The notes: generated by a model not told the origin, from the sequence alone. A stretch of DNA of 64,000 nt from an uncultured Bacteroidales bacterium (GCA_963828395.1 CAWHED010000006.1:216275-280274), one strand, 5' to 3'; counted from the first letter of the stretch, positions 7,888-63,457 are shown. A program made the numbers and translations.

Positions 7888-10851
7888 ATGGAGAAATTTT
7901 CTGGAAAACGGCTCTTCATGCTGACCTTCGGCATAATGATGAGTCTTGTTGTCTTAGGGCAACAGGTAAGAGTGTCAGGAACGGTTACCGATGCTGCCGA
8001 CAGATCGACTTTACCTGGGGTAAACGTCGTTGTCAGGGGTACGCTGACGGGAACCATTACCGGCATAAACGGAGAATACTCCCTGCAGGCAAAGCCCGGG
8101 GATGTTCTTGTGTTCACATTTATCGGTTATCTTCAGCAAGAGGTGGCTATTGGTAATCAGACCGTTGTCAATGTCGCCCTGCAGACTGATGTGCAGGCTC
8201 TTGAGGAAGTCGTGGTCATCGGTTATGGTACTGTTAAAAAGAGTGACAGGACCGGATCTGTAACGGCTGTAAGCTCTAAGGAGTTTAACAAGGGAGCTAT
8301 TGTCTCACCGCAGGACCTGCTGGTTGGTAAGACCGCGGGCGTTGTCATCACGACTGCCGGAGGTGCTCCGGGAAGTGGCGCAACGATACGTGTCCGCGGC
8401 GGTTCATCACTGAATGCATCAAATGACCCGTTGATCATTATTGATGGAGTGCCTATAGATAACAACAACGTATCAGGAAGCTCAAACTTCCTTTCATTTG
8501 TTAATCCCAATGACATTGAGACATTTACCATCCTCAAGGATGCCTCTGCAACCGCAATCTACGGCTCAAGGGCATCAAACGGCGTTATTCTCATAACAAC
8601 CAAGAAAGGTAAGGCTGGCACTCCGTTTACCGTTTCCTATGACGGAAATGTTTCAGTTGCCAATCCCATTGCTTTTCTGGATGTATTTTCAGGTGATGAA
8701 ATGAGGCAGATAGCATACGAAAAGGCCCAGGCTGGTCTTTACGATATTGATGACCTCAGCCTTCTCGGTTCGCAGAACACGAACTGGCAGAAAGAGGTCT
8801 TCCGCACAGCCGTGTCAAGTGATCATAACCTAAGCATGTCAGGTGCTGTTAAAAACTTCCCGTATCGTTTTTCAGTAGGATACACTGATCAGAATGGTAT
8901 CATGAAGAACACTGATATGAAGAGGTTCACGGGCTCTCTGAATCTTAACCCTACCTTCTTCGGTGATGCCCTGAAGGTAAACCTCAATCTTAAAGGGATG
9001 AATACCCACCAGAATTTTGGTGACTCCGGAGCTAACGGATCAGCAATCAGTATGGACCCGACCCAGGCTGTCATGGATGGCAATGAATCTTCAGCCGGAT
9101 ACTACCAGTGGGAAAATTACAACGCCAACCTTGGCACTCCCAACCCGGTTGAACAGGCGCTGGCAGGAGATAACAGATCGATTGTGAACAGGGTGATCGG
9201 AAACATTCAGCTGGATTATGCAATGTTTTTCCTCCCCGAACTCCATGCAAACCTTAATTTGGGTACTGATTATTCAACAAGTGACGGGCATAATAACCGG
9301 CCTGTGACTTCCCCGTCAACACTGACAAGTCCTCTGAATGGCAGGCTGACTGATTACAGCGGAACGAACAGAAATAACCTCCTCGATTTCTATCTCAACT
9401 ATGTAAAGGATCTGACCAGCATCAGCAGCAGGATTGATGCCACTGCCGGATATTCATGGCAGCATTTTCAGAGGGAGGGTGACAACTATTCCCGCGGTAT
9501 TATTGATGAACAGCATCAGCAATACACGAAGTCGGACAGCTCCTCATATATAACTGAGAACTACCTTGTATCATTCTTCGGTCGTGTGAATTACGTCCTG
9601 AATGAAAAGTATTTTCTGACCGCAACGGTGCGTGAGGACGGATCATCACGTTTTGCAGAGGATAACCGCTGGGGGCTCTTTCCCTCAGTTGCCCTGGCAT
9701 GGAAAATCAAGAATGAGTCCTTCCTGACAAATGTTAAAGCTATCACCGACCTGAAACTCAGGTTAGGCTGGGGTGTTACCGGCCAGCAGGATATCGGAAA
9801 TGATTATCCTGCCCAGGCAGTGTACAGAGAGTCATTGCAGGGTTCTTACTATCCCATAGGAGGACATTTCCTGCCTACCCTGAGGCCAAATGCTTATGAC
9901 CCTGATATAAAATGGGAGGAGACAACCACCCTGAACGCAGGACTTGACTTCGCCTTTGTTGCTGACCGTATCATCGGTTCGCTTGATGTCTACAAGAGAA
10001 CTACCAATGATATGCTGAATACGGTAACAATACCCAGCGGAAGCAACTTCTCAAACACTCTTCTCACAAACGTGGGCAGCATGGAAAACAGAGGTATTGA
10101 GCTCTCTCTTAATGTGGTTCCGGTTTCAACATCAGCTATGTCACTCAACATAGGTTTCAACGCAACTTATAACCAGAATGAGGTCACAAAACTGCTGATC
10201 ACTGATGATCCCAATTACATAGGTGTCCTTTACGGTGGCGGTATGACCGGCACGTTCCAGGTGACGAGAGTAGGATATCCGGTCAGATCATTTTTTGTCA
10301 ACAAACAGGTTTATGATGCAGACGGAAATCCTATCGAAGGCCTTTATGTTGATCTCTCACAGCAGGGAGGAGTTGTCAACGGAGATAACGCTGACAAATA
10401 CATCTACCATAGCCCGGCCCCTGAATGGCTGCTTGGCCTCTCGGCAAGATTTGAATATAAAAACTTAGATCTTTCGGCTTCAGCCCGAGGCAGCATAGGC
10501 AACTATGTTTACAACCAGGTGGCAGCAGGTGCATCTTATGACCAGCTGTATCAGATAGGCTACTTTAAGAATTTCACGAAGGCACTGGCCGAGACCAATT
10601 TTGTCAAGCGTCAGTTCACCAGCGATTATTATGTTGAGAATGCCTCATTCCTGAAACTTGACAACGTAAGTGCAGGATACAGGTTCGACAACCTTTTCGG
10701 CGCAGTTGGCGCCCGCCTGAGCTTCACGGTGCAGAATGCCCTGATATTGACAAAATACAGCGGCATTGACCCCGAGGTCAATGGAGGTGTTGACAACAAT
10801 TTCTATCCAAGACCCCGCACCTTCATACTAGGCTTAGGGCTTACCTTTTAA
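7888..10851 (+). CDS. susC: SusC/RagA TonB-dependent outer-membrane transporter
   Basis: CarboxypepD-like N-domain, plug motif KDASATAIYGSRASNGVILITTKKG, C-terminal YPRPRTFILGLGLTF. Confidence 0.97.
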   Translation: MEKFSGKRLFMLTFGIMMSLVVLGQQVRVSGTVTDAADRSTLPGVNVVVRGTLTGTITGINGEYSLQAKPGDVLVFTFIGYLQQEVAIGNQTVVNVALQTDVQALEEVVVIGYGTVKKSDRTGSVTAVSSKEFNKGAIVSPQDLLVGKTAGVVITTAGGAPGSGATIRVRGGSSLNASNDPLIIIDGVPIDNNNVSGSSNFLSFVNPNDIETFTILKDASATAIYGSRASNGVILITTKKGKAGTPFTVSYDGNVSVANPIAFLDVFSGDEMRQIAYEKAQAGLYDIDDLSLLGSQNTNWQKEVFRTAVSSDHNLSMSGAVKNFPYRFSVGYTDQNGIMKNTDMKRFTGSLNLNPTFFGDALKVNLNLKGMNTHQNFGDSGANGSAISMDPTQAVMDGNESSAGYYQWENYNANLGTPNPVEQALAGDNRSIVNRVIGNIQLDYAMFFLPELHANLNLGTDYSTSDGHNNRPVTSPSTLTSPLNGRLTDYSGTNRNNLLDFYLNYVKDLTSISSRIDATAGYSWQHFQREGDNYSRGIIDEQHQQYTKSDSSSYITENYLVSFFGRVNYVLNEKYFLTATVREDGSSRFAEDNRWGLFPSVALAWKIKNESFLTNVKAITDLKLRLGWGVTGQQDIGNDYPAQAVYRESLQGSYYPIGGHFLPTLRPNAYDPDIKWEETTTLNAGLDFAFVADRIIGSLDVYKRTTNDMLNTVTIPSGSNFSNTLLTNVGSMENRGIELSLNVVPVSTSAMSLNIGFNATYNQNEVTKLLITDDPNYIGVLYGGGMTGTFQVTRVGYPVRSFFVNKQVYDADGNPIEGLYVDLSQQGGVVNGDNADKYIYHSPAPEWLLGLSARFEYKNLDLSASARGSIGNYVYNQVAAGASYDQLYQIGYFKNFTKALAETNFVKRQFTSDYYVENASFLKLDNVSAGYRFDNLFGAVGARLSFTVQNALILTKYSGIDPEVNGGVDNNFYPRPRTFILGLGLTF

Positions 10852-10872
10852 TTTGTAAAATGATAAGCAGAT

Positions 10873-12507
10873 ATGAATAAAAAGATTGTAATATTCGGAA
10901 TTATACTTTCAGCACTGATGATCTCATCATGCGTGAAAGACCTGGATGTCACCCCGCAGGACCCGACCAGAATACTGGCAGGGAACCTGGGTGATGATCC
11001 TGTTTATATGCAGGAGGTCCTGGGTAAGATCTATGCAAGCTTCCTCATCTCGGGGCAGGACGGCACCAGAGCAGGTGCTGATATAGATGCTTCTGACGAA
11101 AACTTCTTCACCACCATGAGGGCTCTCTGGAACCTTCAGGAGATCACCACTGACGAAGCTATCTGCGGATGGGGCGATGCCGGTATAGCTGACCTTAACA
11201 CTATGACATGGAGCCCTACCAACCAGTTCCTCACAGCTCTGTTTCAGCGTCTCAGTCTCAGCGTCACATACGCAAATGACTTTATTATAAAAACTCAGGG
11301 AAATACCGATCCTGATATCGTAAAATATGTAGCTGAAGCGCGCTTTCTGAGAGCTCTGGCTTACTACTGGGCAATAGACCTCTTCGGCAAGTTCCCCTTC
11401 ACCACTGAAGCAGACGGCGTTGGCAAGTTCTTCCCCCAGATAGGTTCAAGAACTGAGATATTCAATTATGTTGAGTTTGAACTGCTCGAAATACAGAATA
11501 CTCTCGGAGCTCCAAAATTCTCATATCCGCAGGCTGACCAGGCTGCAGCATGGATGCTGCTTGCCAGGTTATACCTTAATGCCGAGGTCTACACAGGCAC
11601 TGCCAGGTGGGAAGACTGCAAGACCTACTGCGACAAGGTGATCGGCAGCGGAAGCTACTCGCTTGCAACTAATTACAGGCAGAATTTCAGCGCAGACAAT
11701 GACGGCGCCCATAACCCTGAGATGATCTTTGCCTGGGAACAGGACGGGATTTATACGCAGGGTTATGTTGGTACAACCTTCATTATTGAGTCATCCAGCG
11801 ATGCAGTCTATGTAAGGGCTGAAGATTTCCACGGACTGACTTCGAACACAAACTGGAACGGCAACCGTGCCAGGGTAAATTTCATGAATATTCTGGTTGA
11901 CACTGTTGCAACATACGGCAATATTCCTGTACCGGCCACTGATCCTACCTTTTCACTGGCCAAGGACAAGCGTGTCTTCCTGAAAATGAAGAAATCAATG
12001 AATATCCCGAGCGCATCCTCAAGTGGCGATTATGGTATCGGCGTTTATAAATTCACAGCCAAGAATGCTGATGGATCGAGACCGGCCAACTATAGCACTG
12101 CTTTTGCATGCACCGACTTCCCGATCTTCCGGCTGGCTGACGCATATATGATGAGGGCTGAAGCACTCTTCAGAATAGGCGGAGCTGCAAATATCGATGC
12201 TGCTGTGGCTGATATCAACTTAATAAGGGAACGTGCATACGGTAATACCACCGGTAACATCACCGCTACCGACCTTGACCTTGATTTCATACTTGATGAG
12301 CGTTGCCGCGAATTCTATTACGAGGCGCAAAGACGTACCGACCTTGTACGCTTCGGCAAATATACCGGCGGGGAATACTTGTGGCAGTGGAAAGGCGGCA
12401 CATTCGCAGGCCTGAGCACTTCCGAGCACATGGATCTTTTCCCGATCCCAGGTGATGAGCTCTCAGCCAATCCGAATTATAACGGAGTGAATAACCCCGG
12501 TTATTAA
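10873..12507 (+). CDS. susD: SusD/RagB glycan-binding lipoprotein
   Basis: Lipobox ISSC, EARFLRALAY, RLADAYMMRAEA, ER..EF..E..RRTDLVRFG. Confidence 0.96.
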   Translation: MNKKIVIFGIILSALMISSCVKDLDVTPQDPTRILAGNLGDDPVYMQEVLGKIYASFLISGQDGTRAGADIDASDENFFTTMRALWNLQEITTDEAICGWGDAGIADLNTMTWSPTNQFLTALFQRLSLSVTYANDFIIKTQGNTDPDIVKYVAEARFLRALAYYWAIDLFGKFPFTTEADGVGKFFPQIGSRTEIFNYVEFELLEIQNTLGAPKFSYPQADQAAAWMLLARLYLNAEVYTGTARWEDCKTYCDKVIGSGSYSLATNYRQNFSADNDGAHNPEMIFAWEQDGIYTQGYVGTTFIIESSSDAVYVRAEDFHGLTSNTNWNGNRARVNFMNILVDTVATYGNIPVPATDPTFSLAKDKRVFLKMKKSMNIPSASSSGDYGIGVYKFTAKNADGSRPANYSTAFACTDFPIFRLADAYMMRAEALFRIGGAANIDAAVADINLIRERAYGNTTGNITATDLDLDFILDERCREFYYEAQRRTDLVRFGKYTGGEYLWQWKGGTFAGLSTSEHMDLFPIPGDELSANPNYNGVNNPGY

Positions 12508-12525
12508 TCTTTAAACTATAGAGCA

Positions 12526-13572
12526 ATGAAGAAAAATTTAATAATATATCTGACATTCATTGGATTACTGGGCCTTTTCACAGGTTGTGAAGAGGACGGT
12601 ACAAAGGTCGTGATACTGACCAATCCGATTGCTCCGACGCTCAAGACGGTGCCTGACATGACCCTTTCGAGGGCCAACGCCGCTCAGGTGCTTGAGTTTG
12701 TCGGCACTCCTGTTGATCCGGGATTCCAGGCTTCAGCCACTTACAATCTTGAGGCTTGCGCCCCGGGAAATGCTTTTGCTGATGCAGTAACTATATATTC
12801 AGGAACTCAGGATACCTCCATTAAAATCACCCAAAGTGATCTCAACGGGATCCTTCTTAGAAAGTTCCCGGCAGACGCAGTCTCTTCGGTTGACTTCCGG
12901 ATCAGATCCGTTCTTGTTGTGGATGCCGGTACCGGAGCACCCGGTACTTCAGCTGATCCGATGGTATATTCTTCAGCTGCCAGGACAGCAGATGTTACCA
13001 CATATGGTCTTCCCCGCCTTGACCTGATAAATTCAGGCCTTACACAGAAGATTGAATCAGCCAAGGGCGACGGTAAATATTTTGGTTATGTCAAGCTTGA
13101 TGCTGCCAATCCGTTTACCTTGCTTGACCCTGATTCAGGTACTGCTTACGGAGCCAGCGGATCTGCACTTGCGGTAAACGGTGCAGCCATTACGGTTGGA
13201 GCCACAGGATGGCATAAACTAACTGTTGATGTCAACGCACTGACTTACAAGCTTGAAGCCTATATGATCGGGCTTGTCGGGTCAGCAACACCGAACGGAT
13301 GGAATTCACCGGACAGTAAAATGGATTATGACTCCACAACTGGTACATGGTCTATAACTATCACCCTCGTTGCCGGAGACATAAAATTCAGGCTTAATGA
13401 CGGCTGGGCATGGAACCTTGGTTATAATCCGGCTAACACAGGTAAACTGACTGATCTTTTCCATAACGGTGATAATATTACTGTAACACCTGGTAATTAT
13501 ACCATCACATTGACTATAACACAACCAACAGGGCCAACCGAAGCCGGTTCATGTACATTAGTTACAAACTAA
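12526..13572 (+). CDS. susE: SusE-like starch-binding lipoprotein
   Basis: Lipobox FTGC; SusE N-domain; GLVGSATPNGW...IKFRLND.W CBM repeat. Confidence 0.8.
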   Translation: MKKNLIIYLTFIGLLGLFTGCEEDGTKVVILTNPIAPTLKTVPDMTLSRANAAQVLEFVGTPVDPGFQASATYNLEACAPGNAFADAVTIYSGTQDTSIKITQSDLNGILLRKFPADAVSSVDFRIRSVLVVDAGTGAPGTSADPMVYSSAARTADVTTYGLPRLDLINSGLTQKIESAKGDGKYFGYVKLDAANPFTLLDPDSGTAYGASGSALAVNGAAITVGATGWHKLTVDVNALTYKLEAYMIGLVGSATPNGWNSPDSKMDYDSTTGTWSITITLVAGDIKFRLNDGWAWNLGYNPANTGKLTDLFHNGDNITVTPGNYTITLTITQPTGPTEAGSCTLVTN

Positions 13573-13599
13573 TCGTGAGAATATCTAAAAGAAAGATTT

Positions 13600-15441
13600 A
13601 TGAAAATAAAATCAATATACAAAATGATGATGGTCCCTGTGGCTGCCGCAATACTTTTTACCGGCTGCACAAAGGAGACATCGGATGTAAGGCTTGACCC
13701 GAAGCTGGGTACAGCCAAGATTACCAACATAACATCAAATTCGGCAATGGTGCAGGGATTTGTTGTAGCTCAGGGCGACGGCTTTACCGAAAGGGGTATT
13801 TGCTACGATATTGCAGCAAGCCCCACAGTGGCGAAGTCGAAGACCCTGTATACAGGGTCACTGACCTCAGCCACCTTTGATGTGGCTATTGCAGGACTGA
13901 ATTATGCTACGCAGTATTTTGCGCGCGCATATGCTGTCGGACCGACAGGTACTTTTTACGGTGAAGAGATGACCTTTACAACCCTGCCGGTTGTTCCGAC
14001 TCTTACAACTGCAGCAATAACGGCAGTAACCGGTAACTCAGCTGCTGGCGGAGGCGAAGTGACCGTTTCCGGCGGAGCTGATGTAACTGCCCGCGGTATA
14101 TGCTGGGATATAGCCGAAAATCCGACTATAGCCAAAAGCAAAACCACTAACGGGGAAGGTATAGGAGCGTTTACCAGCGCCATGACCGGCCTGCTTGGCA
14201 ATAAGACATACTATGTACGTGCTTATGCAACCAACAGTGCAGGTACCGGTTACGGTCCGCAGGTCTCCTTCAAAACAGATACTGACCTGCCTGCAGTGAC
14301 AACGACACCGGTGACAGAGATCACCAAGATCTCAGCAGTGTCAGGCGGTAATGTGACATATGACGGTGGCGGCACCATCAGTGCCAAAGGCCTCTGCTGG
14401 AGTTTGGATGCTGATCCGGACCTGACTGACAATGTCATTGCAGGCGGAACCGGAACCGGAGAATTTGTAAGCAACCTGACCGGGCTCACGTTATATACAA
14501 CGTATCATGTACGCGCTTATGCAACCAACAGCAAAGGAACCGTATACGGAAGTGATATTCAGTTTACCACACTGGCAAACACCCGCACGTGGAATGTGCC
14601 GGGCGGCTATGTGGCAGCAAGCTATCCGGGTGCAGGCTACAGCGACTGGTCACCGGGGTCATCGCCACAGGTGAAGAGCACTATTACTGCTCCGGACGCT
14701 ATCGAAGGATATGTTTATATGGCCGGCGCTTCAAACGAATGGAAGTTCGCTACCCAGAATGACTGGTCAGGTCCGAATTATGGCTCTGGCACACCAGCCG
14801 GCACGTTAAGTGAAACAGGCGGTAATATTGTATCACCTGCAGGCTATTATAAGCTTAATGTAAATGCAGCAGTTAATCCTATAACGTACACTGCCGTCGC
14901 AACGGTATGGGGTGTTATCGGTGATGCCACACCGGGAGGCTGGGGCGATGAAACAGCGCTGACATACAATCCGACACTCAGGATCTGGACGGGCGCAATG
15001 AATCTTACTGCCGCTGCAATCAAGTTCAGGGCCAACCATGACTGGGGCTATAATTATGGCGCTCCTGCAGGAAGCCAGAATCTTGTTGCCGGTGGTGACA
15101 ACATTTCGATATCAATGGCTGATGTGTATGCTATCACCCTTGACCTGAGCCATCCTAATGAGTATACATATAGGGCAGACAGATGGGGTATAATAGGAAG
15201 CGCAACTGCCGGTGGATGGGATTTTGATCAGAACATGACATGGAATGCCGTCAACGGTGTCTTCACGGCTACTCTGACACTGACTGCCGGTGACATCAAG
15301 TTCAGGGCTAATGACGACTGGGGTTATAACCTGGGGGGCCCGCTCGGTGCTCTGACACCAAACGGTTCAAATATTCCTGTTGCAGCCGGTACCTATACCA
15401 TTACTCTTAACCCATGGACAATGGTTTGCACAATAAACTGA
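13600..15441 (+). CDS. SusF-like starch-binding lipoprotein with three N-terminal FN3-like repeats
   Basis: Lipobox FTGC; three ~95-aa repeats ending (T)YYVRAYATN; C-terminal GVIGDATPGGW/KFRAN.DW CBM repeats. Confidence 0.8.
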   Translation: MKIKSIYKMMMVPVAAAILFTGCTKETSDVRLDPKLGTAKITNITSNSAMVQGFVVAQGDGFTERGICYDIAASPTVAKSKTLYTGSLTSATFDVAIAGLNYATQYFARAYAVGPTGTFYGEEMTFTTLPVVPTLTTAAITAVTGNSAAGGGEVTVSGGADVTARGICWDIAENPTIAKSKTTNGEGIGAFTSAMTGLLGNKTYYVRAYATNSAGTGYGPQVSFKTDTDLPAVTTTPVTEITKISAVSGGNVTYDGGGTISAKGLCWSLDADPDLTDNVIAGGTGTGEFVSNLTGLTLYTTYHVRAYATNSKGTVYGSDIQFTTLANTRTWNVPGGYVAASYPGAGYSDWSPGSSPQVKSTITAPDAIEGYVYMAGASNEWKFATQNDWSGPNYGSGTPAGTLSETGGNIVSPAGYYKLNVNAAVNPITYTAVATVWGVIGDATPGGWGDETALTYNPTLRIWTGAMNLTAAAIKFRANHDWGYNYGAPAGSQNLVAGGDNISISMADVYAITLDLSHPNEYTYRADRWGIIGSATAGGWDFDQNMTWNAVNGVFTATLTLTAGDIKFRANDDWGYNLGGPLGALTPNGSNIPVAAGTYTITLNPWTMVCTIN

Positions 15442-54359: not shown

Positions 54360-55484
54360 TCAGTTAATAACCTGAATATCAAATATTTTATGCCTGTCGA
54401 ACTGAAGCCAGTATTTTATTGAATTCTGCCTGACCAGCTCCCAGTATATGTCAGAGTCAAGTCCGTTGACGAAGTTAATCTCTTTCAGTTCGGAAGAGAC
54501 TTTCTCTGCCAGTTCTTTTTTCAGGGTGATACGGATTGTTTTGCCTTTGTGGGTAAAATCAGCAGCCGGGAAGGAAAGCGTTCCGGTACTGACAGTAAGA
54601 AGTCCGTGGCCGGGTGTGGCTCCTGTACTTACCTGTATGCCATCGTTCATACAACTGAGGGGCGGTGTACTGCCGGCATGTGAGGTCACGCTCAACTCGT
54701 CAACTCCGGTGCAGAAATATTCGCGTGCACGGATACCCATCTTGACACCTATGATAGCAAAGACACCAAGATGTCTGTGCAGCTCGTTGGCAATGACTCC
54801 CGAAAACCACTCATCTTCACCGTACCTGTTACGTATCTCTGTAACGTAAGGCTGTAGATCAGACATATAGAATGAGGTGTCTGTCGGGATGGCTTGTATT
54901 ACCTGCATCTTCTGCACGGGCTTACGGATTTCAATAAAAAAAGCATCATTATTGAATGCTTCACCACCCTTGCCGTTACCGCTCACGGGCAGGAGCCCCT
55001 TAAGTACTTCATCAGCAGCTTCAGGAGCTGTCTTATAGTTAAACCCATCTTCACCGGGGAGGCCCTCATTGCTCCAGATTATCCGTTTCACTTTTTTTGT
55101 GAATGACGGAGCTCCCTTCATTGCTTCTGCTGCCGTTTTCAGCGACCCAAGGGCGATGAACGTAACTGGTGAAGTCTCTCCGTATAGGCACTCTTCAATG
55201 AGACTTATGGCCTCCCGGCCGGATGCCATGGGTAGTCCCTCATGCCAGAGGCTGTCAAGCATACTTCTGACAATATTGAATGCCTCGGGTGATTTATGAA
55301 ATCCGTCTGACACTGTGACTGCGAGTATCCTTACATCAGGCGAGGCCAGCAGCAAACAGATGGTTTTCTGGTCATCAATCCCACCGTCGGTATCAATAAT
55401 GACATAAAGCCCGGGTTTCCACGGATGGGCAGACAGCGAAATAAGCGCAATTAACAGTAATGAAGCAATTATGACTCTTTTCAT
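54360..55484 (-). CDS. Secreted nucleoside-hydrolase-like / FmdE fusion protein
   Basis: Signal peptide; IIDTDGGIDD nucleoside hydrolase motif; C-terminal ELHRHLG...SCMNDGIQVSTGAT FmdE motif. Confidence 0.75.
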   Translation of the reverse strand: MKRVIIASLLLIALISLSAHPWKPGLYVIIDTDGGIDDQKTICLLLASPDVRILAVTVSDGFHKSPEAFNIVRSMLDSLWHEGLPMASGREAISLIEECLYGETSPVTFIALGSLKTAAEAMKGAPSFTKKVKRIIWSNEGLPGEDGFNYKTAPEAADEVLKGLLPVSGNGKGGEAFNNDAFFIEIRKPVQKMQVIQAIPTDTSFYMSDLQPYVTEIRNRYGEDEWFSGVIANELHRHLGVFAIIGVKMGIRAREYFCTGVDELSVTSHAGSTPPLSCMNDGIQVSTGATPGHGLLTVSTGTLSFPAADFTHKGKTIRITLKKELAEKVSSELKEINFVNGLDSDIYWELVRQNSIKYWLQFDRHKIFDIQVIN

Positions 55485-55616
55485 CCAACCCGTTTCCCAA
55501 ATGTAATAATTAAACTGTTTCCGAAAACTGAAAGGCATATTGTATTCCGCAATCCGGCTTCAGGAAAGTTTTCATCAATCTTTTTTTATTATCTTGCCCA
55601 CCCTAATCTTTGGCGT

Positions 55617-57071
55617 GTGAAGAATAGGATATGGTTGTGGTTCCTGATCGGCCTGGTGGCCGGAGCGATTGTTTTTTTCGGGCTGGGGAAGGCAGTTGAA
55701 GCCACGTCAACTAATGATTTCTGCGCCTCGTGCCACGTTCATCCTCAAGCCACAGCAAGCTGGAAGCAGGGGGTTCATTATGCAACAGAGTCTGGTTACC
55801 GGGTCGCGTGTGCCGGGTGCCACCTGCCGCCCAATGGCCAGGGTTACCTGATTGAGAAAGTAAAGACCGGTTCACGTGATTTATGGAGTTACTGGACAAA
55901 GGATTCAACTGAATTCGACTGGGAAGCAGCCTCTTCTCTTGAGAGAGCTTCAAAACACGTTTATAATTCAACCTGCATAAAATGCCATGAGAATCTCTTC
56001 CCGGCAAAACTTACCCGTGAAGGATCTGATGCGCACCTCTATTACAAGCAGATGACAGAAAAGGGAGAGGAGCTGCAGTGCATCAGCTGTCACATGAATG
56101 CGGGTCACTACATAAAGGATTATGTGCACGGCAGCAATAAGGGTTTCGGTCTGGCAGAAAAGCAGGCAGATACAATTTATACATCCCCCGCCGCTGTCGC
56201 CTCTTTTACTGATTTTACAGAGCAGATACCCGGATCCGGGATCTCATTCAGGATGATTGCCCTGCCCGGCACTAATTTTACAATGGGAAGCCCCGACGGT
56301 GAACCGCTGCGTAACCCTGATGAGGCACAGCGAAAGGTCAGCATAGACTCATTCTTCATCGCTGAGGTGGAGGTTACATGGGATGAGTACATGGAATTTT
56401 ACAGACAGACAGCATCCGAAGGGAGGTCGACAGATACCGAGGGGTCGCGTCTTAAGAAGGAGAACCTTGATGCAGTCACAGGTGCTACACCACCTTACGG
56501 CAAGCCCGACCAGAACTGGGGCATGGGACAGAGACCGGCTATATCAATGAGCTATCATGCAGCTGAAACATATTGCCGGTGGCTCAGTCAGGTGACGGGC
56601 AGACATTATCGGCTGCCGACAGAAGCCGAGTGGGAGTATGCATGCAGGGCAGGAACAGAGACACCCTATTTCTTTGAAGGTGACCCCGCCAGGTTTGAGA
56701 AAAAAGGGCTTTTCGGAAGCAGGATCGATACTGCAATCATTGGCACTTATGTCATCTACCGGGGTAATAGTCAGTCAAAGACACAAGAGCCGGAGGCTGT
56801 TAAAGCCAATCCGTGGGGACTGAAGAATATGAGTGGCAACGTGGCCGAGTTCTGTTCTGACATATACGAAGGAACAACGGAACATGTCATCAGGGGAGGG
56901 TCATACCGTGACGGCGCTGCGGGTGTCAGGAGCGCAGCACGTGACCATACGCGCACTGATGCCTGGCTGAAGACTGACCCCCAGATGCCGAAGAGCATAT
57001 GGTGGTACTCTGATTGTTTTTATGTGGGGTTCAGGGTAGTATTGGATAAGGAATTAAAAGTTAAGATTTAA
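55617..57071 (+). CDS. NapC/NirT-type tetraheme cytochrome c fused to an FGE-sulfatase (SUMF1-like) domain
   Basis: N-terminal TM helix; CASCH, CAGCH, CIKCH, CISCH; FTMGS, EVTW, RLPTEAEWEYACRAG, NPWGL..MSGNVAE, RGGS, GFRVV. Confidence 0.88.
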   Translation: MKNRIWLWFLIGLVAGAIVFFGLGKAVEATSTNDFCASCHVHPQATASWKQGVHYATESGYRVACAGCHLPPNGQGYLIEKVKTGSRDLWSYWTKDSTEFDWEAASSLERASKHVYNSTCIKCHENLFPAKLTREGSDAHLYYKQMTEKGEELQCISCHMNAGHYIKDYVHGSNKGFGLAEKQADTIYTSPAAVASFTDFTEQIPGSGISFRMIALPGTNFTMGSPDGEPLRNPDEAQRKVSIDSFFIAEVEVTWDEYMEFYRQTASEGRSTDTEGSRLKKENLDAVTGATPPYGKPDQNWGMGQRPAISMSYHAAETYCRWLSQVTGRHYRLPTEAEWEYACRAGTETPYFFEGDPARFEKKGLFGSRIDTAIIGTYVIYRGNSQSKTQEPEAVKANPWGLKNMSGNVAEFCSDIYEGTTEHVIRGGSYRDGAAGVRSAARDHTRTDAWLKTDPQMPKSIWWYSDCFYVGFRVVLDKELKVKI

Positions 57072-57150
57072 GAATTAAAATTTGACCCATAAATAATAAC
57101 TGTTAACTGACAATACCCTCAGACCTCAGACCTTCAGACCTCAGACCTCA
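57048..57150. repeat. Two heptamer arrays: (AAGAATT)-like and (CCTCAGA)n
   Basis: 57048-57082 and 57117-57150, directly visible. Confidence 0.75.
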
Positions 57151-57205
57151 ATAACCGACAACAGATAACATAAAATAATAACTTTACTTCACACAAATAA
57201 CCATT

Positions 57206-58531
57206 ATGAAAAAATCACCAATTTCAAGAAGAAGTTTTCTGGGCACAGCTGCTGCTGCAGGTGCAGCAGGCATTGTTGTTCCGGCACTGATCACATCATG
57301 TGCACCTAAAAGTAAAAATGTTGTACTCCCCGTGATGCTCGACAAGGCACCTGACGGGCCGCTGCTTAAGGCAGGATTAATTGGCTGCGGCGGCCGGGGC
57401 ACTGGCGCTGCAATTAACTTCATCCATTCAGGTCCCAACCTTACAATTTCGGCACTTGGAGATGTATTCACTGACAGGATTGCCTCATGTCGTGAGCGTC
57501 TGGCAGAGGACGGCGTGCAAATAGCCGATGAGAATTGCTTCACGGGGTTCGATGCATATCAGAAGGTCATTGAATCGGGTGTTGATATTATACTTCTCGC
57601 AACTCCACCGGTGTTCCGCCCTGAACATCTCGAGGCTGCCGTGTCTGCCGGAAAACACGTCTTCATGGAAAAACCTGTCGCCGTTGATCCTGTAGGTGCG
57701 AGACAGATCCTGGCTTCGGGCGAGAAGGCCAAAGGAATGGAGCTTTCAATTGTTACAGGCACCCAGAGGCATCACCAGCATGATTACGTGGCTACCTGGG
57801 GCAAGGTGCAGGAAGGTATGATAGGCGATATTGTATCCGCCAACTGCTACTGGAACCAGGGGCAGCTCTGGTACCGTGAGCCCAATCCGTCATGGACAGA
57901 GATGGAATATATGATCCGCGACTGGGTCAACTGGAGCTGGCTGTCAGGCGATCATATCATTGAGCAGCATGTTCATAATATTGACATCATAAACTGGTTC
58001 ACAGGCAAGAGACCGGTCTCGGCAGTGTCATTCGGCTCGCGCCAGCGCAGACCCACCGGTGATCAATACGATTTCTTCAGTACAGACTTTATCTATGAGG
58101 GAGGAATACATGTTCACAGTATGTGCCGCCAGATAAACGGTTGCGAAAGCAACGTATCGGAATGGATACAAGGTACCAAGGGCACCAGCAACTGCCAAAA
58201 CACCGTATGGGATAAAGCGGGAACACAGCTGTGGAAGTATGACGGTTACAAGCTTGACGAGGCTGGTAAGATGACAGAAGATCTGGCCATCAGTCCTTAT
58301 GACCAGGAGCATATAGATTTTGTCACTTCGATACGCACCGGCAAACCGCTCAACGAGGCAGAATTTGTGGCTCACTCGACGATGGCTGGCATAATGGGAC
58401 GCGTCTCAGCATATACCGGCAAGCTAGTCACGTGGGATGAGATGATGAATTCCGAAATGAAGCTTGGCCCGAAGGTTTATGTTATGGGCCCGGTAGATGT
58501 ATCAAAAACGGTACCTGTCCCCGGTGAATAA
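57206..58531 (+). CDS. Tat-exported Gfo/Idh/MocA oxidoreductase (probable lipoprotein)
   Basis: SRRSFL Tat motif plus ITSC lipobox; GLIGCGGRG, EKP, EQHVHNID. Confidence 0.92.
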   Translation: MKKSPISRRSFLGTAAAAGAAGIVVPALITSCAPKSKNVVLPVMLDKAPDGPLLKAGLIGCGGRGTGAAINFIHSGPNLTISALGDVFTDRIASCRERLAEDGVQIADENCFTGFDAYQKVIESGVDIILLATPPVFRPEHLEAAVSAGKHVFMEKPVAVDPVGARQILASGEKAKGMELSIVTGTQRHHQHDYVATWGKVQEGMIGDIVSANCYWNQGQLWYREPNPSWTEMEYMIRDWVNWSWLSGDHIIEQHVHNIDIINWFTGKRPVSAVSFGSRQRRPTGDQYDFFSTDFIYEGGIHVHSMCRQINGCESNVSEWIQGTKGTSNCQNTVWDKAGTQLWKYDGYKLDEAGKMTEDLAISPYDQEHIDFVTSIRTGKPLNEAEFVAHSTMAGIMGRVSAYTGKLVTWDEMMNSEMKLGPKVYVMGPVDVSKTVPVPGE

Positions 58532-58546
58532 GTAAACACAACTTTT

Positions 58547-59488
58547 ATGAATTATAAACGATCACGTCGCAGCTTCCTGACAGGCGCTGCTGCTACCGGA
58601 GCGGCACTGTTTGCGGCTCCGGCGCTGCTCAGGGGAAGCAGTATTGCATCAACGCTGCCGGCTCCGGATAAACCATTCACCCTCGGATACGCTCCGTCAA
58701 TTGGCATGTTCCGCGAGCTGTGCGGCAGCGATGATGCAGTCGACAATATTAAATTCATACACGACAGGGGATTCCGGGCCGTCTTTGACAACGGTCTGCC
58801 AGGCCGCCCTCCGGCTGAGCAGGAACGAATCGCCGCTGAAGTGCAGCGACTTGGAATGATGATGGGACCATGGGTCCTCTATGCTGATTTCTCAACGACC
58901 TCCTTCGTTCTTAATCCACAGAAAGTACGGGATTTTTTGAAGGCAAAGGTGCAGGAGGGTGTTGATATAGTAGGGCGCACGGGCTTTAAAATGGCCCTCG
59001 TGGTCCCAGGACGGTACGATGAGAGACTGCATCATGATTACCAGCTTACGAATATGATTGACAACCTTAAGTTCTGCGCAGAGCTGGCCGAGCCCGGGGG
59101 TATGACCATTGTTATTGAACCGTTGAACACCCTGGCTGATCACCCCGGTCTATATCTTACACAGATGCCACAGGCTTACCAGATATGTGATGCCGTTAAC
59201 AGCCCTTCGGTGAAGATCGTGGAGGATCTGTACCACCAGCAGATCACCGAGGGCAACCTGATCCCAAACATCGAAGCTTGTTGGGACCAGATAGCGGCTT
59301 TTCATGTTGGAGATAATCCTGGCCGCCTGGAACCTGGCACGGGAGAGATAAATTTTAAAAATATCTTTAAATATCTCCGTTCACGCGATTACTCAGGTGT
59401 TATATGTATGGAACACGGCCAGAGCATCAAGGGTCCGGAAGGCATTAAGAGAGTTATTGAAGCATACAGGGAATGCGACCCGTTCTGA
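58547..59488 (+). CDS. Tat-exported TIM-barrel sugar isomerase/epimerase (Hyi/AP-endonuclease-2 fold)
   Basis: SRRSFL Tat motif; IEPLN, DLYHQQ, GDNPGR.EPGTGEIN, MEH. Confidence 0.9.
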   Translation: MNYKRSRRSFLTGAAATGAALFAAPALLRGSSIASTLPAPDKPFTLGYAPSIGMFRELCGSDDAVDNIKFIHDRGFRAVFDNGLPGRPPAEQERIAAEVQRLGMMMGPWVLYADFSTTSFVLNPQKVRDFLKAKVQEGVDIVGRTGFKMALVVPGRYDERLHHDYQLTNMIDNLKFCAELAEPGGMTIVIEPLNTLADHPGLYLTQMPQAYQICDAVNSPSVKIVEDLYHQQITEGNLIPNIEACWDQIAAFHVGDNPGRLEPGTGEINFKNIFKYLRSRDYSGVICMEHGQSIKGPEGIKRVIEAYRECDPF

Positions 59489-61203
59489 CTGAACGTGGGA
59501 ACACTATAAGCGATAAGTGGATCAAAGCATCCATTATTGGAACGATATGGGCTGCTGCCGAAATTGTTCTCGGTAGTTTTTTGCATAATCTCCGTGTGCC
59601 TTTCAGCGGTAATATCCTTACTGCCATTGCCCTTGTGATACTTATTTCTGTAAGCCATAAATGGCGTGAGCATGGGCTTTACTGGAGGGCAGGATTAATT
59701 TGCGCGCTGATGAAAACGATGTCACCCAGCGCAGTCATTTTCGGGCCTATGATAGCCATTATTGCAGAGTCAATGTTGCTTGAGGCTTCAGTTAGGCTCT
59801 TCGGCAGGACATTCGCCGGTTTTGTCATCGGTTCCATGCTCGCGATGTCGTGGAACCTTTTCCAGAAAATCCTCAATCTGCTCATTTTTTACGGTGGCAA
59901 GCTTGTTGACCTGTATTCTAACCTGACCAATTATGCAGCCAAAGAGCTGAACCTTAAATTTGACACCTTCTGGGCACCGCTGGTATTGCTGCTGGCTCTT
60001 TATGCAGCTTTCGGAGCTGCCGCAGCCGTGGTGGGTATTCGGACAGGCAGGAGGATCCTCTCCCGTCCTGCCGTAGAAGCCCTGGTGGAGAAGCCATCCG
60101 TCCGTCCGTCTGAATCGCGTTCCGGCCAGCCGTTTAATTACTCGCTGGCCTGGCTCGCAATTGATATTTTACTGGTTGCCGGAGCATTGGTTATAATCAG
60201 CCAGACAAAATGGATATTCTGGGTCATAACAGTGATACCTGTGTCGGTCATTCTGGCGGTACGCTATAAACGTGCCATGAGGCAACTTGCCAGACCCGGG
60301 TTCTGGATCACATTCGTGATCATCACGATGCTTTCAGCGCTGGCTTTCACCGCCTTTCAGCCCGGCAATACCAATATTGCGGAAGGAGTGCTCATCGGCA
60401 TACAGATGAATTTCCGGGCACTGATCATCATCGTTGGCTTCTCCGCCCTCGGCACGGAACTGTATAATCCTGCGATTCGCAAACTCTTCAGCAGAACACA
60501 CTTCAGGCAGTTGCCCCTGGCCCTTGAACTTTCTGCCGAAAGCCTTCCTTCAATGATTGCGGCAATGCCTGACCTGAAAACCGCCATCAAAGATCCTGCA
60601 TCGATACTCAGCAGCATGATATCGCATGTTGAAAGCCGGCTGAGTGAAGCCAGAGCCGAACAGAAGCGAAGAAAGAAAGTATATATAATAACCGGGGAAA
60701 CAGGCGAAGGAAAAACAACCTTCCTGCTTGGACTGAAAGACATCCTGAAAGAAAAAGGCATCAGGGTGGGAGGTATACTGGCACCGAGACTTATGGAGAG
60801 TGACATGACCATCGGATATGATATACTCGATGTCAGCTCAGGTGTAACAGCACCGTTTCTAAGACTCACCAACCCGGAAATTAAAGGAGTGGAAAGGTTT
60901 GCACAGATGGAGGAAGGGTACAGGGTAGGACTGAAAGCTCTTAACCCTGAGAATAACAGAGATAGTAACCTGATGATAATTGACGAAGCGGGTCCGCTGG
61001 AGATGAGAGGTGAAGGCTGGGCCGGACGATTGAGCCAGCTTTTGGAAATTAACGAGTGGCAGATTATGATTGTGGTCAGGAAAAGCCTCGTCAATGAGAT
61101 GGTCAGAAAATTCGGCATAAAGGATGCAGCGATTCTTGAGGTTGGCTCAATTGATTGTGGCAAAGTAGTAGATGAGATTATGAATTCAACCGAAAATGGA
61201 TGA
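59473..61203 (+). CDS. Polytopic membrane protein fused to a C-terminal P-loop NTPase (NTPase_1/THEP1-like)
   Basis: About 9-10 hydrophobic segments, then ITGETGEGKTT and IIDEAGPLE. Confidence 0.75.
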   Translation: MRPVLTERGNTISDKWIKASIIGTIWAAAEIVLGSFLHNLRVPFSGNILTAIALVILISVSHKWREHGLYWRAGLICALMKTMSPSAVIFGPMIAIIAESMLLEASVRLFGRTFAGFVIGSMLAMSWNLFQKILNLLIFYGGKLVDLYSNLTNYAAKELNLKFDTFWAPLVLLLALYAAFGAAAAVVGIRTGRRILSRPAVEALVEKPSVRPSESRSGQPFNYSLAWLAIDILLVAGALVIISQTKWIFWVITVIPVSVILAVRYKRAMRQLARPGFWITFVIITMLSALAFTAFQPGNTNIAEGVLIGIQMNFRALIIIVGFSALGTELYNPAIRKLFSRTHFRQLPLALELSAESLPSMIAAMPDLKTAIKDPASILSSMISHVESRLSEARAEQKRRKKVYIITGETGEGKTTFLLGLKDILKEKGIRVGGILAPRLMESDMTIGYDILDVSSGVTAPFLRLTNPEIKGVERFAQMEEGYRVGLKALNPENNRDSNLMIIDEAGPLEMRGEGWAGRLSQLLEINEWQIMIVVRKSLVNEMVRKFGIKDAAILEVGSIDCGKVVDEIMNSTENG

Positions 61204-61905
61204 TATACTCGGAAAAGTCAGACGTGAACTGAAAGATGCATCGGATGAAAAGACCAGGCAATCCGGTATGAGGTTCTTCAAGGAGGCGGTAAGTCTGTAC
61301 GGGGTCAGATCAGTCGATGTGAGACGGATCGCAAAGGACAGTTTTGATGCGATAAAAGGCCGAACAAAATCAGAGATTTTTGAACTCTGTGATGGACTTT
61401 GGCAGTCAGGTCAGATGGAGGAAACGTTCATAGCATGTGAATGGTCACATAAACTGAACAGGCAATATACCCCTGAAGATTTCCTGATTTTCGGGAAATG
61501 GGTTCACAAATACCTGAATAACTGGGCATCGTGTGACACACTGTGCAATCACACGATCGGAGATTTCGTTCAGATGTACCCCGATTATCTTGTTGAGCTG
61601 AAGAAATGGTCATTTTCTGATAACAGGTGGGTACGGCGGGCATCTGCGGTGTCTCTGATCGTTCCCGCCCGGCGCGGCAAATTCCTGCCGGACATTTTTG
61701 AAATAGCTGGGCATACTGTTACGCGATAAGGATGATATGGTACAGAAAGGTTACGGATGGATGTTAAAGGAGGCCAGCAAACCGTATCAGGAGGAGGTGT
61801 TCGATTTTGTCATGAAGAACAAAACGGTCATGCCCCGCACTGCACTGAGATATGCCATTGAGAAAGATGCCGCCGGAGCTCAGGGCAAAGGCAATGGAAA
61901 GGTAA
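61196..61905 (+). CDS. AlkD-like HEAT-repeat DNA alkylation repair protein; frameshifts near 61715 and 61865
   Basis: YGVRS, NNWASCD, NRWVRRAS, MVQKGYGWMLKE, RTALRYAIEK. Confidence 0.85.
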
Positions 61906-61907
61906 AT

Positions 61908-63457
61908 TTATTTGATATTGCTTGTTCTCGCTTTCCAGAAATCATTGAAACTGTTCACAGGCTCCTCGCACAGGTAGACTGCTGCCCCGTACTCACGTGC
62001 ATCGGGATCGGAGATTTTTCCAATGAGCCGGATGTCGGAAAACAGTTGCTTGCTACGTCTTCTCCAAGGTTATGGTTGATGTAGACTAGCGATTTTATCT
62101 CAACCGGGAAATCACGCGGGAACCAGTACCTGAAGCTCTCGTGGAAACTGACAGCCTCAGGTAATCCGTACTTCCTGCCGATAATTGTAATTGCTCCCGC
62201 CTGGCCATAGTTTTCTGCATAGATAATTGAGGCATTCTTTATCTTCAATCATTCTGTAAGCGCTGTCGGCGAGCGCGGTAAGCTCCTCCCATCCGATCAT
62301 ATCGGCATAATCCTGCGGAAGCGAGTGAATGGTACCATCTTCAAACCGGCATGCCAAGATCGATTCCGTATTTCTCATTAAGTACCCCGAAATAGGTTTT
62401 CAGCCCCTCCTTGTCCCAGACCGGCAACCCTGCCGGCACTCCCGGTATGGCGATCAGGATAACGACCAGAGGGAAGAGAATCCTCAGAGCCCCATTACGG
62501 AACCACCTGTCATAAGCTGTGCCCCCTGCTGCGATAAGGAAAGGCATTATCCCCAGGGTATAATAGCTTTTGCCCTTCAGAAACATAAGAGCAACGACAA
62601 CAAAGAGCGAAAGGAAGCCCAGGAACCTGAACCTGCCGGCTTCCCTGGCTGCAAGCAGGTAAATCAGGCCGGCTACGGTGAATATTGACCCGACGAAAGG
62701 CAGGAAAAGCTGTTCGGTGAAGAAACACCCCGGCATTCATGTAAACGAGCTGGGAATCGTACAGTTCGGATATATGGTTGAATACCGGGAAACCGTGCAC
62801 AGCCTGCCAGACCAGGTTGGGCAGGAAAATCAGGCCGCCGGTCAGATCATTCCAATCCAGAAATACCTGTTTCTGAACACGTCACGATGCCGTGTCAGCG
62901 GGCACTGTCAGCAGAAGACCCAGGAAGAGGAGCCCGGCGAGGTATTTGTTCAGGAGGGCAAAGCCGGCAGCTATTCCGAAGTAGATGAGAAAACTGTTCC
63001 TGCCGGTATTGATGTATTTGATAATCATCAACAGGCAGAGTGTCCACAGGAATATCTCAATGTGTACCGGGTGGAAGAGAAAGAAGGTCCTCATGAAAAA
63101 GCCGGACACAGTGAGTCCTGTGGCTGCAAGGATGGCACCGTAGCGTGTGCCTCCCAGTTCCCTGGCTATTGAGGCAACCAGGAAGATCATTAACCCGCCC
63201 AACAGGGATGCAAATAACCGGATGGCAAACAGCGAGTTGCTGAAGACCTGCTGTAACAGGAAGCTTACCCACCCAATCAGTGGCGGTACGGTGGCATAGC
63301 CGAAATCGGGGTGCTGCCCGAGCGACAGATACAGCAGCTCGTCGCGGTGATATTCAAGGTTATCATAAACCAGCAGCCGCACAGTAATATTCAGTAGAGC
63401 TATTGCCAGGATAACAGGATCAATTCTCCTGAAAATTGTTGCTACTTTCGTATCCAT
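61908..63457 (-). CDS. GT39/ArnT-like membrane glycosyltransferase; several frameshifts
   Basis: YHRDELLY, GY..VPPL, LLNKY, GKSYY, DYADMIGW, NYGQAGAI over four ORF pieces. Confidence 0.8.

Follow-up and report, generated by a model that had tools for sequence, protein, structure and literature searches.

Within a 64,000-nucleotide stretch of DNA from an uncultured Bacteroidales bacterium (GCA_963828395.1 CAWHED010000006.1:216275-280274; hereafter the window), a gene that joins a membrane-anchored tetraheme NapC/NirT module to a domain with a formylglycine-generating enzyme (FGE) fold is followed on the same strand by genes for an oxidoreductase of the Gfo/Idh/MocA family (Gfo) and for a TIM barrel, both predicted to be exported by the twin-arginine translocation (Tat) system. 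Our analysis suggests, with a probability that we put at roughly 0.55, that electrons would pass here from a sugar to a bound nicotinamide cofactor, NAD(P)H, in the Gfo enzyme, then to a flavin mononucleotide (FMN) tethered to the FGE-like domain, and on through the hemes to menaquinone. Four elements of this path are inferred: that the protein is flavinylated, that the two proteins touch, what the substrate is, and which way the electrons run. The first-pass annotation of this DNA had described a NapC/NirT domain and a Cys-less FGE fold in one open reading frame (ORF) with two SRRSFL-bearing Tat genes behind it, and all three ORFs are present where it placed them. Its further idea, that a periplasmic dehydrogenase is linked here to respiration, is well supported by comparative data, namely adjacency of the genes across phyla, their co-occurrence in a sample of 201 genomes, and two independent fusions to heme modules.

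Conserved pairing of the FGE-like protein with an exported Gfo enzyme

The fusion gene (55617..57071, plus strand) opens with a GTG start codon and encodes 484 amino acids (aa) that match both PF03264 and PF03781. The Gfo gene (57206..58531, plus strand; 441 aa; PF01408 47.8 bits, PF22725 40.5) lies 134 nucleotides (nt) behind it and is separated from the TIM barrel gene by 15 nt; in the 134-nt gap, a sigma-70 promoter and terminator scan, whose consensus does not cover Bacteroidota promoters, found no terminator-like site. No RNA data set was listed as containing the stretch, and the DNA data sets listed contained shares of 0.17 or less of it, which bears on neither expression nor habitat. 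The Gfo protein displays a Rossmann NAD(P) domain, a C-terminal Gfo domain, the EKP motif and His residue of the family, and a twin arginine, the last within a predicted Tat motif, SRRSFL (57221-57271, plus strand; PF10518 TAT signal 23.8 bits, cut-off 22.7). Across 45 Gfo partner sequences, R8, R9, G60, G62, R64, G67, A68, E155-K156-P157, and H257 are invariant, and the nearest solved relatives of the window protein are inositol dehydrogenases, DgpA, and a sugar 3-ketoreductase (E about 1e-11).

A scan with one genome per species returned at least 600 related stretches, from which the best 80 loci (L006-L085) were used; these come from metagenome-assembled genomes (MAGs) of Bacteroidota, Planctomycetota, Verrucomicrobiota, Acidobacteriota, and Armatimonadota and from a few others, and thus span at least five phyla. 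Gfo and TIM barrel genes were counted by tblastn with the window proteins in the 72 loci that extend at least 1500 bp downstream. A Gfo homolog was found directly downstream and on the same strand in 52 of these 72 loci, and anywhere in the locus in 59. For the loci in which the FGE-like domain is fused to NapC/NirT, our script detected the Gfo gene in 14 of 15, and the 15th (L024) has a Gfo match 459 bp past a split FGE match, hence all 15 carry it. The same association emerged from a locus-independent sample of 201 evenly drawn Bacteroidia genomes, each searched with each protein (E <= 1e-50 for Gfo, E <= 1e-30 for the FGE-like domain). Here, 13 genomes possess a Gfo orthologue and 12 an FGE-like domain; both are present in 12, Gfo alone in a single genome (G132), the FGE-like domain alone in none, and neither in 188. 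The FGE-like gene adjoins the Gfo gene on its upstream side in 11 of the 12 double-positive genomes, while in the other (G139), a fragmented assembly, the two are placed on different contigs. A long heme-fusion frame was encountered only in the genome of the window (G000) and in G030. Since the former contains only 21 PF01408 matches in 3.76 Mb, we estimate that chance adjacency of an FGE-like and a Gfo gene would fall below about 1%.

By these gene orders, the conserved unit is the FGE-like protein together with the Gfo enzyme, around which ApbE flavin transferases, the TIM barrel, ThuA, and DUF1080 are accessories. The expectation that the fusion co-occurs with both Tat enzymes is therefore borne out for the Gfo enzyme and fails in part for the TIM barrel. 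The barrel was counted in 15 of the 72 loci and, among the 15 NapC-fused loci, in 4; it is a recurrent accessory outside the conserved core. The frequent absence of the barrel could be taken to mean that the genes are merely neighbors that share no function; we consider this highly improbable in light of same-strand adjacency kept over at least five phyla, the near-perfect phyletic pattern in the 201 genomes, and the independent fusions of the FGE-like domain to heme modules.

A Cys-less FGE fold joined to two kinds of heme module

The heme module of the fusion protein spans residues 5-166 (55629..56114, plus strand; PF03264 103.8 bits, cut-off 24.1) and has the arrangement of NapC/NirT proteins, in which an N-terminal membrane anchor precedes four CxxCH motifs. 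The predicted transmembrane anchor (residues 5-24, IWLWFLIGLVAGAIVFFGLG; 55629..55688, plus strand) is a hydrophobic stretch that falls in a modelled helix of residues 2-29, and the motifs are CASCH (residues 36-40, 55722-55736), CAGCH (65-69, 55809-55823), CIKCH (120-124, 55974-55988), and CISCH (155-159, 56079-56093), all on the plus strand. Among the 34 heme-bearing rows of our alignment (A1), H42, H54, H140, H164, K81, and D88 are at least 90% conserved; we take the K81/D88 pair to recall the quinol-site Lys/Asp of NrfH, and the conserved His residues to be distal candidates. The anchor and the c-type hemes imply that the protein would face the extracytoplasmic side. Under the NCBIfam cut-offs, the heme domain stays below every named subfamily that we compared (NrfH 74.2 vs. 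134.2, napC_nirT 64.5 vs. 310.6, and TorC 78.7 vs. 478.2 bits). Relatives of the fusion protein are abundant, with 7939 proteins at E <= 0.001 among 8000 candidates scored, and their source names include 'sulfatase modifying factor 1', 'formylglycine-generating enzyme', and 'SUMF1/EgtB/PvdO family nonheme iron enzyme'. Since 118 of the 120 best relatives listed contain both PF03781 and PF03264, the NapC/NirT-FGE architecture is not a product of chance.

The FGE-fold domain occupies residues 213-446 (56253..56954, plus strand; PF03781 121.2 bits, cut-off 23.3). In the AlphaFold2 model of the fusion protein (mean predicted local distance difference test score [pLDDT] 74), the FGE core exceeds 90, and the heme domain is of low confidence, the hemes being absent from the model. 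Structural comparison by Foldseek placed PvdO (5hha, TM 0.75 on target) first, followed by FGEs (E 1e-16 to 1e-12), with structural members such as PorK/GldK also among the FGE-fold matches. FGE structures possess a copper-binding catalytic Cys pair after an RGGS motif. In the window protein, RGGS (426-429) is followed by YRDGAAGVRSAARD, which holds no Cys pair; the corresponding segment, RGGSYRDGAAGVRSAARD, is Cys-free, and no conserved Cys is found at that place in 77 relatives. The alignment of these 77 FGE-like domains did not display a conserved metal-type cluster either. It revealed two family-specific features, a loop D-A-[VI]-[ST]-x-[AP]-[TS]-x-P-[YW] and a C-terminal insertion, W450-x3-D-P-Q-x-P-K-S-x-W462 in the window protein (56964..57002, plus strand). 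W450, D454, P455, P458, S460, and W462 of the insertion are invariant in the 70 sequences of A1, and residues 454-458 have a pLDDT below 50; the insertion could possibly form a cofactor or partner surface.

A role in sulfatase maturation was set aside because the Cu-binding Cys pair is absent and a sulfatase is not a recurrent neighbor. A related proposal is that the FGE-like domain itself binds or converts a non-sugar substrate, either a side chain of a peptide or protein, in an oxidation of the serine-to-formylglycine type that the dehydrogenase would assist, or a PvdO-like chromophore, with the cytochrome as electron sink. Its best solved relative, PvdO, is indeed a periplasmic FGE fold that NCBIfam names dihydropyoverdine dehydrogenase, and in one locus (L018), genes for a sulfatase and for a GH20 enzyme follow the pair. 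Nevertheless, the missing Cys pair speaks against such chemistry, the sulfatase of L018 stands outside the recurrent neighbor clusters, which consist of sugar enzymes and ApbE, and the Gfo partner family retains the EKP and His residues typical of sugar dehydrogenases, so that we regard this proposal as improbable.

The N-terminal partners of the FGE-like domain differ among the 80 loci. In 15 loci, it is fused to a NapC/NirT tetraheme module with four CxxCH motifs, to which L019 adds a form with three, and 13 loci join it to a single short cytochrome c domain or to a pair of them (1-2 CxxCH). All 10 of these 13 short-cytochrome forms that were tested match PSCyt1 ('Planctomycete cytochrome C') together with the FGE-sulfatase domain by Pfam. 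In the other 51 loci, the FGE-like domain is preceded only by a signal-peptide-like N-terminus, two being cut at contig ends. Two unrelated heme-c modules have thus been joined independently to the same FGE-like domain, which argues that the domain takes part in electron transfer. Tandem duplicates of the FGE-like gene were observed in L081 (2010-4346) and L085 (7812-10417), with no Gfo match in either locus; the family occurs also apart from the dehydrogenase.

A candidate flavin attachment site in the FGE-like domain

The first of the two family-specific features, the loop, contains an exact copy of the D-x-x-[S/T]-G-A-[S/T] signature of ApbE flavinylation, whose final Thr or Ser receives FMN through an ester bond, as described in the accessible part of PMC12052999. 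In the window protein, the match is D285-A-V-T-G-A-T291 (56469..56489, plus strand), with Thr291 as the predicted FMN-bearing residue. Conservation in A1 is 90% or higher for both D285 and T291. The canonical D..[ST]GA[ST] is present in 119 of the 120 fusion relatives listed (the remaining one reads G-P-T), and each of the 77 aligned relatives closes the loop with T or S. At the aligned position, PvdO and human FGE show no resemblance to the flavinylation motif. A count over the window's own genome gave 11 canonical motifs among 1.29 million residues in open frames no shorter than 150 aa; at this rate, about 0.004 would be expected in a protein of 484 aa. One of these 11 frames encodes an RnfD/NqrB-family protein with the identical heptad DAVTGAT, and the flavinylation papers count this family as an ApbE substrate. 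In the model, residues 268-287 have a pLDDT below 50 and overlap the start of the motif loop (285-291); this loop and residues 454-458 might be exposed, mobile segments that become ordered around a cofactor.

Two further frames of the own genome were observed to carry the canonical motif, a 489-aa frame with a DoxX domain (L088, G000:C5:252558-254024; DALSGAT) and a 253-aa frame with no Pfam match (L090, G000:C10:45404-46162; DAYSGAT); both may be ApbE substrates. A NapC-fused gene of an Acidobacteriota MAG (L019, 8013-9494) deviates in several respects, in that its first heme motif reads C-D-Q-F-C-H, with CX3CH spacing, its flavin loop begins with R and not D (RAMSGPT), and its downstream Gfo gene is split into several frames.

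Genes for the flavin transferase accompany the family. A tblastn search with four ApbE queries located ApbE in 24 of the 80 loci, mostly flanking the FGE-like gene; in gene-order clustering, 11 loci have it at position -1 and 8 at +1 to +3, and three ORFs flanking FGE-like genes were identified as ApbE by Pfam (E 3e-74 to 2e-62). The own genome encodes a single ApbE (G000:C8:62925-63620, 243.5 bits), on another contig, and also TatC, a cytochrome c assembly protein, and cytochrome bd, so that the machinery required by the proposed path is present.

These observations bear on the role that the first-pass annotation had assigned to the Cys-less FGE domain, that of a docking or ligand-binding adaptor. 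According to this explanation, the domain would be free of any cofactor, and electrons would pass from bound NAD(P)H directly to heme. The conserved adjacency and the heme fusions are compatible with an adaptor, the fold class to which FGE belongs is prone to binding, with structural members such as PorK/GldK among the matches, and no flavin-binding domain was detected in the fusion protein. On the other hand, a hydride donor cannot readily reduce one-electron hemes without a two-to-one-electron converter, and an adaptor leaves unexplained why the D-x-x-[ST]-x-[AP]-[TS] loop is conserved, its hydroxyl residue being invariant, and why ApbE genes occur in 24 of the 80 loci. Given the exact, conserved ApbE motif and these flavin-transferase genes, the domain is probably not an adaptor, an explanation that we rate as unlikely; by sequence and gene context, it is most likely a flavin carrier. 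An FGE-like carrier would be a new fold for ApbE flavinylation.

A proposed route from a sugar to menaquinone

In the path that we propose, the Tat-exported Gfo enzyme, holding a non-exchangeable NAD(P), would oxidize a hydroxyl group of a sugar or glycoside to a keto group. The bound NAD(P)H would then be re-oxidized by an FMN that the cell's ApbE had attached covalently to Thr291, a residue in a flexible loop of the Cys-less FGE-like domain. The covalent FMN would thereby convert two-electron into one-electron transfer, for which a bare adaptor has no means. From the flavin, electrons would enter the four c-type hemes of the fused NapC/NirT module one at a time, and the hemes would reduce menaquinone in the membrane. 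Where present, the Tat TIM barrel might isomerize, epimerize, or eliminate on the keto-sugar product. The direction toward menaquinone is proposed on the basis of midpoint potentials, as transfer from NAD(P)H (about -320 mV) to menaquinone (about -74 mV) is downhill.

The opposite direction would have menaquinol feeding the hemes and then the flavin, with the Gfo enzyme acting as a periplasmic reductase of keto-sugars or other carbonyls. The first-pass annotation had allowed both directions, NapC/NirT proteins are classically quinol dehydrogenases, and Gfo-family reactions are reversible. Against this stand the potential of menaquinol, which is too weak to reduce NAD(P)+ without energy input, and the nature of the accompanying enzymes, as the steps taken by the 3-keto-disaccharide hydrolase, by ThuA, and by the keto-sugar TIM barrel come after an oxidation. 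We therefore judge reverse flow to be quite unlikely.

Several points weigh against the path toward menaquinone. To our knowledge, there is no precedent for an FGE fold that holds FMN, nor for a flavin, tethered on one protein, that accepts hydride from NAD(P)H bound in a separate enzyme. A Pfam scan of the fusion protein gave no FMN_bind, DUF2271, or DUF3570 match, and most relatives outside Bacteroidales read D-A-[VI]-[ST]-R-P-[TS] in the loop, and not G-A. ApbE is absent from the window and from all nine canonical-motif loci; flavinylation here would therefore depend on the one ApbE encoded elsewhere in the genome. With 27.7 bits against a cut-off of 750 (NF058561), the Gfo enzyme is no orthologue of the characterized BT_2158 glycoside 3-dehydrogenase, and 13 of the 72 loci gave no Gfo match at the tblastn level, of which two (L058 and L067) contain divergent Gfo genes by Pfam. 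Finally, kinship among the genomes means that our counts describe a pattern, not a formal test, and that their statistical weight is overstated. Prediction of a complex of FGE-like residues 186-484 and Gfo residues 36-441 with NAD and FMN returned a score of 0.00, which is evidence neither way.

The distribution of ApbE differs between the two forms of the loop, as a local ApbE gene was found in 0 of the 9 canonical G-A loci vs. 24 of the 68 others, a difference that is marginal among related loci (Fisher p = 0.05). Speculatively, canonical sites might use a housekeeping ApbE, and R-P-[TS] sites might need a dedicated one. A more general proposal is a mechanism shared by several phyla, in which the FGE fold would be a new class of ApbE-flavinylated carrier, whose tethered FMN would take up hydride in the Gfo active site, pass single electrons to c-type hemes, and so turn periplasmic NAD-enzymes into respiratory dehydrogenases. 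Dedicated ApbEs would serve the non-canonical x-P-[TS] motif, and the hemes would be supplied by NapC/NirT in anaerobic Bacteroidales, by PSCyt1 in Verrucomicrobiota, Planctomycetota, and Acidobacteriota, and by separate acceptors elsewhere. We put this general mechanism forward tentatively, as slightly less than an even chance.

Keto-sugar context and neighboring genes

The third gene of the window's module (58547..59488, plus strand) encodes a xylose-isomerase-like TIM barrel of 313 aa (PF01261 99.7 bits, cut-off 31.1) with an SRRSFL motif. Its predicted Tat export is accompanied by a TIGR01409 match that is barely above threshold (17.6 bits, cut-off 16.7), and the protein reached no named equivalog, with hydroxypyruvate isomerase at 120.2 bits against a cut-off of 353.45. 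Its nearest solved chains are 3ngf and the 3-keto-D-glucoside 4-epimerase 6wn6. Gene-order clustering recognized orthologues of the barrel in 16 loci, 15 of which keep the twin-arginine motif. The gene is placed downstream in Bacteroidales and in a Flavobacteriaceae MAG, and divergently upstream in Chitinophagaceae-type and Acidobacteriota loci. Together with ThuA, found in 6 loci, and the 3-keto-disaccharide hydrolase family, found in 4, these TIM barrel neighbors indicate that the gene context is apparently one of periplasmic keto-sugar metabolism.

A recurrent arrangement was observed in L009, L012, L013, L014, L015, and L017 (about 9500-13600 in each), where the NapC-FGE fusion and Gfo genes are followed by a second Gfo gene of the PF19051 type and then by ThuA, and L013 continues with a 3-keto-disaccharide hydrolase and another Gfo gene. 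A single heme-flavin carrier may serve several dehydrogenases.

In the window, the TIM barrel stop overlaps by 16 nt with a further gene (59473-61203, plus strand; 576 aa) whose product has a long multi-pass membrane region and, behind it, an NTPase_1 domain (THEP1-like; PF03266, 73 bits). Only in L006 and L010, the two closest relatives, does this gene come after the module, so it probably lies outside the conserved unit. Divergently upstream of the fusion gene, 54360-55538 (minus strand) combines the N-terminal part of an inosine-uridine nucleoside hydrolase (PF01156) with FmdE (PF02663), an odd pairing that is conserved upstream in L006 and L010. Farther downstream, at 61196-62084 (plus strand), a gene for DNA alkylation repair that matches PF08713 over positions 1-163 of the 213 in the profile stops at 61729 and a second ORF runs from 61737; this may be a split or frameshifted gene.

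Relation to described systems and implications

Among described systems, the heme module most resembles NrfH, CymA, NapC, and TorC, with which it has in common the N-terminal membrane helix, the four CxxCH motifs, and a PF03264 score above the cut-off. It differs from them in being joined to an FGE-like domain and in reaching no named subfamily threshold. In addition, the known members of the NapC/NirT family carry electrons from quinol and have a nitrite, nitrate, or trimethylamine N-oxide (TMAO) reductase as partner, whereas the flow proposed here runs toward quinone and the partner is an NAD-type dehydrogenase. PvdO and FGE have their fold and periplasmic location in common with the FGE-like domain, and PvdO likewise lacks the Cys pair; however, they possess no flavinylation loop at the aligned position, no heme fusion, and no known Gfo partner.

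The Gfo enzyme of the window resembles Zymomonas GFOR and the Bacteroides/Alistipes enzymes BT2158/AL3 in its Tat signal, its Gfo fold, and a keto-sugar gene context (the TIM barrel here, DUF1080 and ThuA in relatives). A non-exchangeable cofactor has been proposed for Tat Gfo enzymes in the accessible parts of PMC8121099 and 10.1101/2024.03.25.586180. The route by which their tightly bound NAD is re-oxidized is unsettled, and the same portions of these two sources point to another sugar or to 'specialized proteins, such as cytochromes'. In the prevailing view of GFOR and BT2158/AL3, a second sugar substrate serves to recycle the cofactor, whereas here a dedicated heme protein, which probably also carries flavin, is the conserved neighbor. 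A respiratory coupling of periplasmic 3-keto-glycoside chemistry is also a feature of the FAD-GMC glucoside 3-dehydrogenase, LacABC, and ThuAB systems, which are cytochrome c-dependent according to the accessible part of PMC8121099, and ThuA homologues stand in 6 of the related loci. Those systems hold FAD in the catalytic subunit, whereas here an NAD(P)-bound Gfo enzyme would be catalytic and the flavin would reside on a separate carrier of the FGE fold.

With the flavinylated proteins NqrC, RnfG, NosR, PceC, DUF2271, and DUF3570, the fusion protein shares the exact motif on a predicted exported protein and the presence of ApbE in the genome and beside relatives; it differs in that the putative carrier fold is FGE-like and most FGE relatives use the x-P-[TS] variant. 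FGE, sulfatase, Gfo, and NapC go unmentioned in the main texts of the flavinylation surveys PMC8238504 and 10.1101/2024.03.13.584918. Our literature searches likewise returned no description of a NapC-FGE fusion, of a link between Gfo, cytochrome, and FGE, or of an ApbE-flavinylated FGE domain, in agreement with the first-pass annotation, to which no described system of such architecture was known.

Exported Gfo-family dehydrogenases start the recently described oxidative breakdown of glycosides in gut and soil bacteria. If the proposed path is true, a dedicated heme-flavin partner would answer how the trapped NAD(P)H of these enzymes is re-oxidized without free nicotinamide cofactors, and one more protein fold would join the flavinylated electron carriers. 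It would also correct the mis-annotation of thousands of proteins now labelled 'formylglycine-generating enzyme' or 'SUMF1/EgtB/PvdO family nonheme iron enzyme'. For anaerobic Bacteroidales, periplasmic sugar oxidation would then be a respiratory, energy-linked process.

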